Shown here in pieces: positions 24,301 to 27,300 of a stretch of DNA of 64,000 nt. A program made the position numbers and the translations under genes. Numbering within the stretch: position 1 is the stretch's first letter; each line of letters opens with the position of its first letter. The notes below the pieces were generated by a model. That model saw only the letters and a list, made by a program, of their open reading frames with translations. It searched no databases and was not told the origin of the DNA. Source of the DNA: Octopus vulgaris. Taxonomy: Eukaryota. The DNA lies in contig OX597822.1 in the NCBI GenBank assembly GCA_951406725.2, positions 88,722,001-88,786,000 on the forward strand, read 5' to 3'.

Positions 24301-27300
24301 ATCACAATTTAACATCTGTTTTTATGTTGGCATGGGCGAACCAGAGAACTGAGCTGGCAAACCAGAGCTGACGAACCAGAGAACCATGCCAACCTCTACT
24401 GTCTGTTTAAGTATAGTTCACATAACTTAAGGGATGTAGTACTGAAGAAGATGGCTTTGTAGCAGGTGTTGAGAGGTTAGAGTATGACAGAGAGATAGAA
24501 ACAAGTCTTGGTGTAGTTTTTTTTTTATTGAAATTAAAACTAAGAATTTGTCTGGCAACTTGAGTTTCATGCCACTGCAATCTTCAGGCAAGAACTGTTA
24601 CTTGTATTTTAGATCTTTTGGTGTAGTGCTTGTGCTGACAATGTATTTTAGATCTTTTGGTGTAGTGCTTGTGCTCGTTCACTGGTTAGTTTTTGTGTTT
24701 ACTGGTTGCAGGTTCAGTCCCACTGCATGGCACTTTGGGCAAGTATTTTCTATTATAGCTCCAGATCAGCCAAAGCATTGTAAGACAGAAACTAAAGAAA
24801 CTTATGTATGTATGTATGTGTGTGTGTGTGTGTATGTATGTATGTATGTATGTATGCATGCATGCATGCATGCATGTAAGCATGTATGTATGTATGTATG
24901 TATGTACATGTGTGTGTGTGTGTATGTGCACACATACGGGTGTGTTACTGTATCCTTGCTTTGATTTTCCGTGATAGTTGTAAATGAGTGCCACCGTATT
25001 GCAATCATGTACAACCTATATGATGATGTTTTTCATAGCCCAATGTGTTTTCACACATTTTATCTGTGAAGAAAATTTTCTTCCATGACTATTTCCACAG
25101 CACAAGGTCTTTCCATGTCCAAATGTACACAAATGTGTCAAATATCTCAGGCAAGGGTCAAAGACATCCATGGCATCATCAACCACGTCTATCTCACCAG
25201 AGGCTCAGTAAAAGCTATAACTAGATCAACCACATCTATTTCACCAGTCTTTAAAAAGAGGATGAGAATGACAAAAATGTGCTTGTACACTTGTCTTTTG
25301 AAAGTGTGTAATGTATTCACTGAGATGGTTCAAATTGAATCTTCCAGAAACATTCTATGCATTGCAGCTGAAATATAGGTGTATGTAGAAGTACATTTTA
25401 TTGAGAAGTCTTGTGGCTGGAACAAACTACCTGCGTCAGTTGTTGACTGCCATGACACTGCATCCTTTAAGGCCCTCATGCTTTCCAAAATCCGCCGAAA
25501 CTACACCTGATTATACATACACTTTAAATGAGTTGTAGTGCACCTGAGCACTGTACACAATGTTTTTTATTATTATTATTATAATCCAGAGAACTTTCAA
25601 CTTTCATTAGGACTGAGTTACATTGACTGTAATTAAAATAACACTCAAACAACATACACTAAACTAGTTAGAAACTATAGTCATACTATTCAGTTGTTTG
25701 TTGTTGTTGTCATGGTGGTGGTGGTGGTGGTAGTAGTAGTAGTAGTAGTAGTAGGAGGAGGAGGAGGAGGAGGAGGAGGAGGAGCAGCAGCAGTAGCCGG
25801 TTGGTTTTACTTTCTAAACTTTGCCAACAGCCTCTTGCTGTGCTGCTTTCTAACAGCTCAGTTGCACATTGGTAATGGTTAGAGGGTAATGATTAGCAAC
25901 TATTGTTAGTATAATACTAAATGAATAATGACAGCTGATGATTGTCAACAGGTGTAACACATTACAAATATCCATAGTAAACTAGTGCATTCTGCCTGTC
26001 AAAATTAACGTCTGTTTTAATTGTATGTGTTTTTACTTTTCATTTGCTCTAGGTTGTTCAATTTGTGCATTTATTTTTTAATATTTTCATCACTGTGGCA
26101 CAGTAATTAGGGTGTTGCATTTGTGATCATAAGATTGTGGTTTCAATTCCCAGACCAAGTGGTGCATTGTGTTCTTGAGCAAAACACTTCCATTTTATAT
26201 TACTTTAGTCTATTCAGCTGAAAATGAGTTCCAACAATAAAGTTAACCATATGACAGACTGGCATTCTATTCAGTGGGGAATGTTGTAACTTCAATTACT
26301 TCAATTACTTATACATCATGGAAACCAGATTAAGCTATGGCCTTATGAGTTCTAGAATACAATAACATTAATTGCAATCAGTATTTTTTTAAAAATTTGT
26401 TTTAAGAAATATTTTATTGGAAATATTTTGAAATGTGAACTTACCTAATTCTATGGATAATCCTAAATTACTGATGTCATTCAAGTTTATATTGCTGTAG
26501 CTCTGAGAGAATGAGTCTTTGCTTTCTGGATTTGCAAGCTCTGCATCTAACTCCTCTTCATTTTCTTCCTTCTCCTCTTCCTCTCCTTCTGCAGCAATGC
26601 TAATGTAAGAAGAGGGACTGAGTTCTTCACTCTCCACTGACTGTGGAACTGGTGATGAGCATGATTTTTGAGAGATGCTGCAGTCACTAGAAGATGGTGA
26701 ACGCTGTACATAGTCATGGTCAGAGTAGATGGCTTCTGTGATTTCCTGGTTTGTCTGCATCTCAATTTCTTTAGATGTGATGGTTGTGGCCAATGGAATA
26801 GGAGAGAGAGAACATGAATCTGGTGATGAGTCATCTAGATTACTGGAGACTGCTGGAATGGCAATCTCCATTATTTCACTGAACAGATCTTCAAACTCTG
26901 TATCAAATGTTAAATTGTCATTGATATCCAAAGTAGGCTAGAAAGATATAAAATGGAAAAGATAAGTAACATGTATAAAAATACAGGATGTATTTGCTAT
27001 TCAATACAAATATCGGAGATGTACTTGCATAGCAAGTGATTTGATCTGAGATCGTGTGCTGAAACGAAAACAATTGCAGCGTGGAAGGTGTTTGTAAGCC
27101 ATTTAAGAAACACACAAAAGCCGTTCGATTCACTTCAACATTTAAGTTTAATTTGTCAAAATATTTTCGTCGCTTGAAGACCGCGACCTGTTCAAGCACG
27201 GATTTTTGTCAGTGAACAGGTCGCTGTCTCAAAGCGACGAAAATATTTTGACAAATTAAACTTAAATGTTGAAGTGAATTGAACGGCTTTTGTGTGTTTC

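Follow-up and report, generated by a model that had tools for sequence, protein, structure and literature searches.

A hammerhead motif with a natural G3–C8 core at the end of a Penelope-like retrotransposon family in Octopus vulgaris

Introduction

The tertiary pair between positions 3 and 8 of the hammerhead core, canonically C3–G8, has been proven by engineered swaps. The window analyzed here, a 64,000-nucleotide stretch of an Octopus vulgaris contig to which all coordinates without a locus prefix refer, holds a motif in which the two letters are exchanged, inserted in an intron of a CREB3-like gene. The locus raises the question of whether this core is a private mutation or a natural state, what kind of element carries it, and whether it could still cut RNA, either in a parent element or beside this gene. 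We consider it probable that the locus is a truncated and inverted insertion of the end of a Penelope-like element (PLE) with a family-wide G3–C8 core, that the parent RNA likely contains a slow ribozyme needing a second copy and probably protein, and that the copy in the window, to go by prediction, would be inert.

Results

The hammerhead motif

The motif is a minimal hammerhead of type I on the forward strand (27205–27255), with a predicted cut after 27248. Stem I (27205–27211 with 27249–27255) consists of seven Watson–Crick pairs; the core GUGAACA, from G3 to A9, occupies 27212–27218 and is followed by an extra G at 27219; stem II (27220–27225 with 27233–27238) has six pairs. GAAA (27239–27242), the AAUAUU palindrome of helix III (27242–27247), and U17 (27248) complete the motif. 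The core and both stems had been claimed in a preliminary description and are all present on this strand; the sixth pair of stem II, however, holds for the locus and is a minority state in the family, where position 27225 is T in 11 and G in 159 of 191 copies and the youngest intact parents have a stem II of 5 bp. The flipped tertiary pair lies at 27212 (G3) and 27217 (C8), and was assessed from the family census and the states of relatives. The literal C3 and G8 expected of a hammerhead are missing here, and the Watson–Crick complementarity of positions 3 and 8 is retained as G–C. The remaining core letters (U4, G5, A6, A9, G12, A13, A14, A15.1, U16.1, H17) are complete, each less than 7% variable across the 191 copies, and the three-way junction is closed by stem I, together with stem II (7 + 6 bp). 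Within the 64 kb of the window, the descriptor matched this motif alone; in 60 simulated windows of equal dinucleotide frequencies, it returned one match at looser stems (5 + 5 bp) and none at 6 + 7 bp.

Helix III is of a different character. As the preliminary description stated, the AAUAUU palindrome is present, but a stable helix III within one molecule was not found: the 2 bp with a 2-nt loop are unscorable as a hairpin. Self-pairing of the palindrome between molecules is predicted at −2.6 kcal/mol. Palindromes of this type are found in dimer-dependent PLE hammerheads, so cutting by the monomer is unexpected. In the parent context, stems I and II are predicted to pair with P 0.70–1.0. An extension of stem I by a G3–U17 pair is predicted to be favored by 1.3 kcal/mol, and in the parent its P is 0.67. 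The UUU triplet and the extra G had been put forward as features that may lower activity; the extra nucleotide and U17 are, however, normal for the clade and not defects, judging from the homologous motifs and from the text and Fig. S3 of Cervera and de la Peña (2014; PMC4209133), where U17 is common and one mollusc row appears to have UUU (columns machine-read from the PDF).

Searches of Rfam with the locus returned no hammerhead match at E-values up to 10, the best hit being a miRNA model on the long hairpin, below the gathering threshold. Relatives with canonical cores (L207, L215, L219, L221) likewise fell below gathering, and Rfam is therefore uninformative here. The suggestion that CUGANGA searches would miss the motif is borne out, as that descriptor is incompatible with a G3–C8 core.

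Structure and age of the insertion

The inserted sequence comprises 316 bp (27015–27330) between direct repeats of 13 bp at 27002–27014 and 27331–27343. The repeats are exact, as had been reported for the target-site duplication; the true duplication is 8–13 bp long, because the first four bases of the right repeat and the last base of the left repeat also match the element end. From left to right, the insertion consists of a tail of ~58 nt on the reverse strand (27015–27072), which corresponds to codons ~11–30 of the parent open reading frame (ORF) and is attached to the left arm only; an inverted, 5′-truncated arm on the reverse strand (27073–27194), the sense strand of CREB3, which holds the hammerhead from U4 on; and a direct arm on the forward strand (27195–27334), which carries the end of the pseudo-LTR (pLTR), the hammerhead, the 5′ UTR, and the first 10 codons, without a tail. 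The parent ORF starts with an ATG at 27305 and is ended by the insertion boundary (27305–27334, forward strand). The homologous ATG opens an ORF for reverse transcriptase (RT) and GIY-YIG endonuclease at L282 and L339, and the tail sequence of the left arm leads straight into the parent ORF at L280, L282, and L292. C8 is indeed present in both arms; the left arm begins at U4 and has neither G3 nor the 5′ strand of stem I, so that a single arm holds G3 together with a closed stem I.

The inverted arms, arranged tail-to-tail over 122 bp, differ at 5 of 122 sites, of which two are CpG decays; the insertion is thus young in a loose sense, and not brand new. Contigs of organism A (a different sample), organism B, and organism C extend from 27306/27307 into the right flank, which suggests that the insertion is common to the three organisms, although the 25–29 element-side letters fall short of the 31-letter bridging rule. 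Among the 15 joints listed (148 more exist) from four contig runs, in which the left flank is nearly uncovered, none skips the insertion. Ten runs presumed to be RNA contain ~0.6 of the sequence words.

A reading of the 122-bp inverted repeat as a miRNA or a MITE was rejected, since each arm is a copy of the same PLE end and different copies are inverted at different points. A second abundant short repeat lies at 27500–27720, 150 nt past the insertion, with high contig depth; similar sequence flanks many loci.

The parent element

The hammerhead is the end of a Penelope-like retrotransposon. The parent is laid out as hammerhead, ATG, RT, GIY-YIG, and hammerhead, with a period of 4,261 nt. A whole unit is found at L339, where the ATG follows G3 by 92 nt and the second hammerhead lies 4,261 nt on; the same locus holds an inverted truncated copy with a third hammerhead, and its ORF is interrupted by a stop and frameshifts. 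[quoted passage not shown] Features of endonuclease-bearing (EN+) PLEs that are present include a single ORF with RT and GIY-YIG, the pLTR–ORF–pLTR arrangement, an adjacent inverted truncated copy, and a one-sided tail. Those of minimal PLE hammerheads (pLTR site, extra nucleotide after A9, G10.1–C11.1, palindromic helix III) are present as well. At all five intact-ORF loci inspected, the motif has G3–C8 and a 5-bp stem II.

A survey of 57 distinct insertions (L042 and L044 not being independent) recovered 32 inverted copies, 21 single copies with a tail, and four single copies without one. Exactly one tail occurred in each of the 32 inverted insertions, and duplications of 10–15 bp flanked 19 of the 25 that lie outside simple repeats. 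Such an architecture of inverted copies with one tail is described as a PLE signature (Craig et al., 2021; PMC8557442) and is accounted for by a model in which RT starts at two sites (Frangieh et al., 2024; PMC11167929). The head-to-tail tandems of 170–400 nt with canonical hammerheads that mark non-LTR retrozymes were not found in this family, which consists of single dispersed copies, or tail-to-tail pairs, of the end of a coding element.

A 3.4-kb tandem at G000:C2:171.24 Mb was considered as a parent and rejected as a local duplication with a short copy. Nearby, L122 (G000:C2:171250000–171254000) is the site of another PLE, only 27% identical to the flipped-core family, whose RT/GIY-YIG frame spans 764 aa and which has a 1.8-kb inverted copy. 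In the RT at L191:3471–6545 (−) (P0069), a long insertion separates motifs 3 and 4, and motif 4 is an unusual GGAIG; insertions of this kind are described in PMC8557442 only for PLEs with N-terminal endonucleases. The protein has 67 relatives at 33–56% identity, mostly unnamed, and this lineage is possibly an undescribed PLE subclade. Long tracts like (CATA)n and (CA)n occur in the family pLTR (L154:7400–8680, L339:7900–9000), which indicates that family copies disperse microsatellite-like DNA genome-wide.

Upstream boundary of copies

In long copies, a tract resembling a branch point and acceptor ends ~20 nt 5′ of stem I (L339:4700–4730; L028, L083, L092, L098; window 27195). Among 125 copies, 64 reach the acceptor-like site: 59 begin within a few bases of its AG without the tract, 25 of these keeping the AG, and five retain the branch-point/acceptor-like tract. 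The tract is a candidate sign of the 5′ UTR intron sought in the pLTR as a feature of EN+ PLEs, and the clustering of starts suggests that the RNA either has a constant 5′ end or is spliced to a very short first exon. Since sequence upstream of the cut site is present in many copies, uncut RNA appears to be the usual template. Separately, L123:1200–2300 holds an inverted pair in which both arms extend ~330 nt upstream with sequence unlike the family pLTR, a possible case of host 5′ transduction via an uncut hammerhead.

The motif lies ~90–120 nt before the ATG in the flipped-core family and in its in-genome relatives. This placement, the derivation of copies from uncut RNA, and the rate-lowering core changes found in several lineages (below) would also fit a fold selected for a non-catalytic role, such as protein binding or an RNA processing or translation signal near the ATG, with the 3–8 pair kept for shape. 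We regard such a role as quite unlikely, because the active conformation includes the 3–8 pair (PMC3088659), G12 is retained along with the remaining catalytic letters, and a homologous PLE motif cleaves with protein (PMC11167929).

Family census and internal constraint

Exact matches to a 20-nt string spanning stem I, core, and stem II numbered 6,323 with G3–C8, 203 with a letter other than G at position 3, and 379 in which G3 is combined with a letter other than C at position 8, so that G3–C8 makes up ~92% of countable copies. Copies picked by upstream or ORF similarity, and not by the core, had G3 in 41 of 41 and C8 in 37 of 41 cases. The proposal of a natural covaried state is accordingly supported at the level of the family: G3–C8 is no private mutation, and the family consensus keeps both the pair and the stem pairing. 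In contigs of four public runs (organisms A–D), the 30 differences listed for a 5% level include neither 27212 nor 27217, which points to a G3–C8 core common to related organisms.

A 17-nt family-like pattern was matched 49 times when position 3 could be C, U, or A and position 8 could be G or U. All 19 C3–G8 matches among them were inspected and lie in other families. A3–U8, a candidate bridge state, accounted for eight of the 49 and was rejected; the four inspected are decayed family copies. Mismatched G3–G8 copies number 241, and in some insertions the mismatch occurs in both arms or in tandem, which suggests that a mismatched core may still be copied. These copies do not form a fossil intermediate subfamily: 23 tips require 18 changes on the copy tree, against a mean of 21.2 for shuffled tips (P ~0.03, some tips being paired arms), and, as with other variants, their share is higher among older copies. 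As a separate observation, changes of C8 to G are several-fold commoner among family copies than changes of G3 to C and recur across subfamilies; candidate causes are a mutation hotspot or conversion from canonical families with the same flanking letters.

Columns at least 10% variable among the 191 copies make up six of eight in loop II (seven of nine with the indel column) and one of 41 in the core and stems, this last a wobble-preserving change (P = 1.3e-5 versus loop II, from hand-entered counts that left out two CpG columns, the T-run length column, and positions 3 and 8, which were search-selected). The downstream UTR and codons, with ~7 of 79 columns variable, are not clearly above the core.

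These counts bear on whether the motif is a catalytically dead relic in which G3 and C8 were fixed by drift and transposition proceeds without cleavage. The passage from C3–G8 to G3–C8 requires two transversions via a mismatch, G3–G8 copies exist and some were apparently copied, and most copies reach upstream of the cut site. Furthermore, Naiad PLEs thrive without canonical hammerheads (PMC8557442), and ribozyme mutants of Poseidon_Ac insert normally in vitro, with no RNA ends seen at the cut site in the experiments of PMC11167929. Decay by drift nevertheless seems unlikely to us, given that the only two core substitutions of the lineage are the pair-restoring ones, and that subfamilies differing in loop II retain the rest of the core, the two stems, and the palindrome.

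Relatives and covariation of the 3–8 pair

A sister family in the same genome (55% amino acid identity, 1312-aa ORF) has a hammerhead at the homologous place, with C3–G8 but C9. A genome search with a more distant RT recovered the same two families only. The canonical-core pattern gave 1,729 matches (control, 5), in older related families; in two of the older in-genome families (L303, L323, of a type selected by pattern), the flanking letters are the same as in the flipped-core family and positions 3 and 8 are different. The motif was also identified in five of 12 metagenome loci, as C3–G8 in L207, L211 (read by eye), and L215 and as U3–A8 in L209 and L214; the scan reported motifs with a paired 3–8 only, and seven of the 12 loci had none. 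Across 12 homologous motifs, four of them chosen by the C3–G8 pattern, positions 3 and 8 are G–C in two (the flipped-core family), C–G in eight, and U–A in two; stem II pairing holds in 71 of 72 cells, and changes have occurred on either side of the stem. In these sequences, the predicted 3–8 tertiary pair covaries through three Watson–Crick states.

The protein tree joins the flipped-core family to the C3–G8 sister with an SH-aLRT of 91, in a quick search of 23 rows with a long outgroup branch. Taken with the C3–G8 or U3–A8 state of the sister and other relatives, G3–C8 is most simply one derived event and looks to have arisen once. The sister family is itself very young, with many near-identical copies (L196:6385–6434 (+), L197–L206); its older in-genome relatives keep A9, and L209, from an unrelated host, also has C9.

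Other departures from the consensus core among relatives are C9, in the sister family and L209, and G4, in L211, and they indicate relaxed constraint. A bolder interpretation would see in G3–C8 an active, selected, purine-first hammerhead, with PLEs tuning their ribozymes down so that most RNA stays uncut until protein or a second copy binds. Two expanding sister families would then have taken different rate-lowering changes, G3–C8 with its G3–U17 off-state in one and C9 in the other. We think this extension improbable as it stands; were it true, PLEs would widely carry a class of hammerheads that CUGANGA searches fail to see, among them some PLEs that have been called hammerhead-free.

The CREB3-like host gene

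The nearest exon (26443–26937, reverse strand; residues 37–201 of P0070) belongs to a CREB3-like gene and is the second of its coding exons. The first coding exon is at 49812–49705 on the same strand, which places the insertion close to the 3′ end of an intron of 22.8 kb. The peptide of 26937–26443 is 100% identical to a bZIP protein that bears the source label of a CREB3-type factor from Octopus vulgaris. The acceptor AG (26939–26938) is 76 nt away from the edge of the element, in agreement with the ~75 bp first reported, and the arms could form a long hairpin in the pre-mRNA; an effect on CREB3, through cutting of the pre-mRNA or altered splicing of exon 2, might thus be imagined. We judge it highly improbable. 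The complete motif occurs on the forward strand only, antisense to the gene, and cutting of the sense transcript is already refuted. In a forward-strand context of 550 nt, the hammerhead stems are predicted at P = 0.0, because the arms form one long hairpin of 122 bp, and the sense strand is predicted to fold into the same hairpin. Some of the more than 6,000 copies in 2.8 Gb are expected near exons, and the annotated protein uses exon 2 intact. The relevance to exon 2 implied in the preliminary description falls away on the same grounds of strand, predicted burial in the hairpin, and membership in thousands of dispersed copies; judging from the folding models, the window copy would not act on CREB3.

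Discussion

A probable slow ribozyme in the parent RNA

The reading that we prefer joins an observed element structure, family state, and covariation to a slow ribozyme that is suggested by comparison. Reverse transcription of the two arms would have begun at two fixed points early in the ORF, on a template RNA that, to judge from copies extending upstream of the cut site, was uncut at the hammerhead. In the parent RNA, two hammerheads may pair through the AAUAUU palindrome to build helix III; G3–C8 would restore the tertiary pair that positions the 2′-OH of residue 8 and could support slow cutting after U17; and the competing G3–U17 wobble, by extending stem I, would lower the rate. In published work, G8C alone reduces the rate 10^5-fold (PMC8495972), and a G3–C8 variant is noted as more active with G17 than with C17, from data unpublished there (PMC3884650).

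In this family, which numbers thousands of copies and includes intact parents, the engineered rescue mutant is the usual form of the core. Neighboring sister families with the canonical pair turn this state into a natural three-state covariation of positions 3 and 8, and the families provide matched natural constructs for asking whether PLE hammerhead cleavage is under selection. CUGANGA descriptors undercount hammerheads. The finding carries nothing new on CREB3.

Comparison with known systems

The natural alternative 3–8 pair that has been reported is U3–A8 (PMC3088659; PMC4209133). For G3–C8, the literature searched yielded engineered cases only; no natural example appears in the consulted parts of PMC6765202, PMC6155905, PMC7229834, PMC11014351, PMC2920678, or bioRxiv 2026.07.22.740005, and an earlier report is possible, for example in Lünse et al. 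(2017) or Arkhipova et al. (2017). The octopus family shares with the core variants of Perreault et al. (2011; PMC3088659) a natural covariation that keeps the 3–8 pair Watson–Crick. However, for the U3–A8 pair described there transitions suffice and a pyrimidine stays at position 3, whereas G3–C8 places a purine at position 3 and takes two transversions.

The closest match in form is to the minimal PLE hammerheads of Cervera and de la Peña (2014), which are described as having low activity that depends on dimers, along with an extra nucleotide and a palindromic helix III. Common to both are the pseudo-LTR site, a long helix II, the unpaired nucleotide between 9 and 10.1, G10.1–C11.1, the palindromic helix III, frequent U17, and thousands of dispersed single copies along with opposite-strand pairs. 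The cores presented in that work have C3–G8 or U3 (U3–A8 in Schistosoma), with no G3 in the consulted rows of Fig. S3, in contrast to the octopus core. In addition, the extra nucleotide is H in the published consensus and G in the octopus motif and most of its clade, and stem I is longer in the octopus motif (7 bp).

At the protein level, the parent resembles the Nematis/Neptune elements of Craig et al. (2021) in its RT, Cys linker, and GIY-YIG domain with CCHH residues, as well as in partial tandems, an inverted truncated copy, the tail, and a (TA)n target bias. The short linker recalls the Nematis rows in a comparison made by eye only. The long insertion between RT motifs 3 and 4 differs in being absent from canonical PLEs, according to the account given there.

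Finally, the protein-dependent hammerhead of Poseidon_Ac (Frangieh et al., 2024) shares with the octopus element its place at the pLTR–ORF junction, AT-rich targets, and two 3′ ends shortly into the ORF that lead to an optional tail. The ORF begins inside stem II in Poseidon_Ac, whereas the octopus ATG follows G3 by ~92 nt; the tail is ~58 nt in the octopus element and 30–40 nt in Poseidon_Ac; and the octopus endonuclease, unlike that of Poseidon_Ac, has a CxxxCxxC linker. In Poseidon_Ac, the engineered C3G/G8C double mutant partially rescued cleavage; the swap that was made by design in that element is the natural state of the octopus family.
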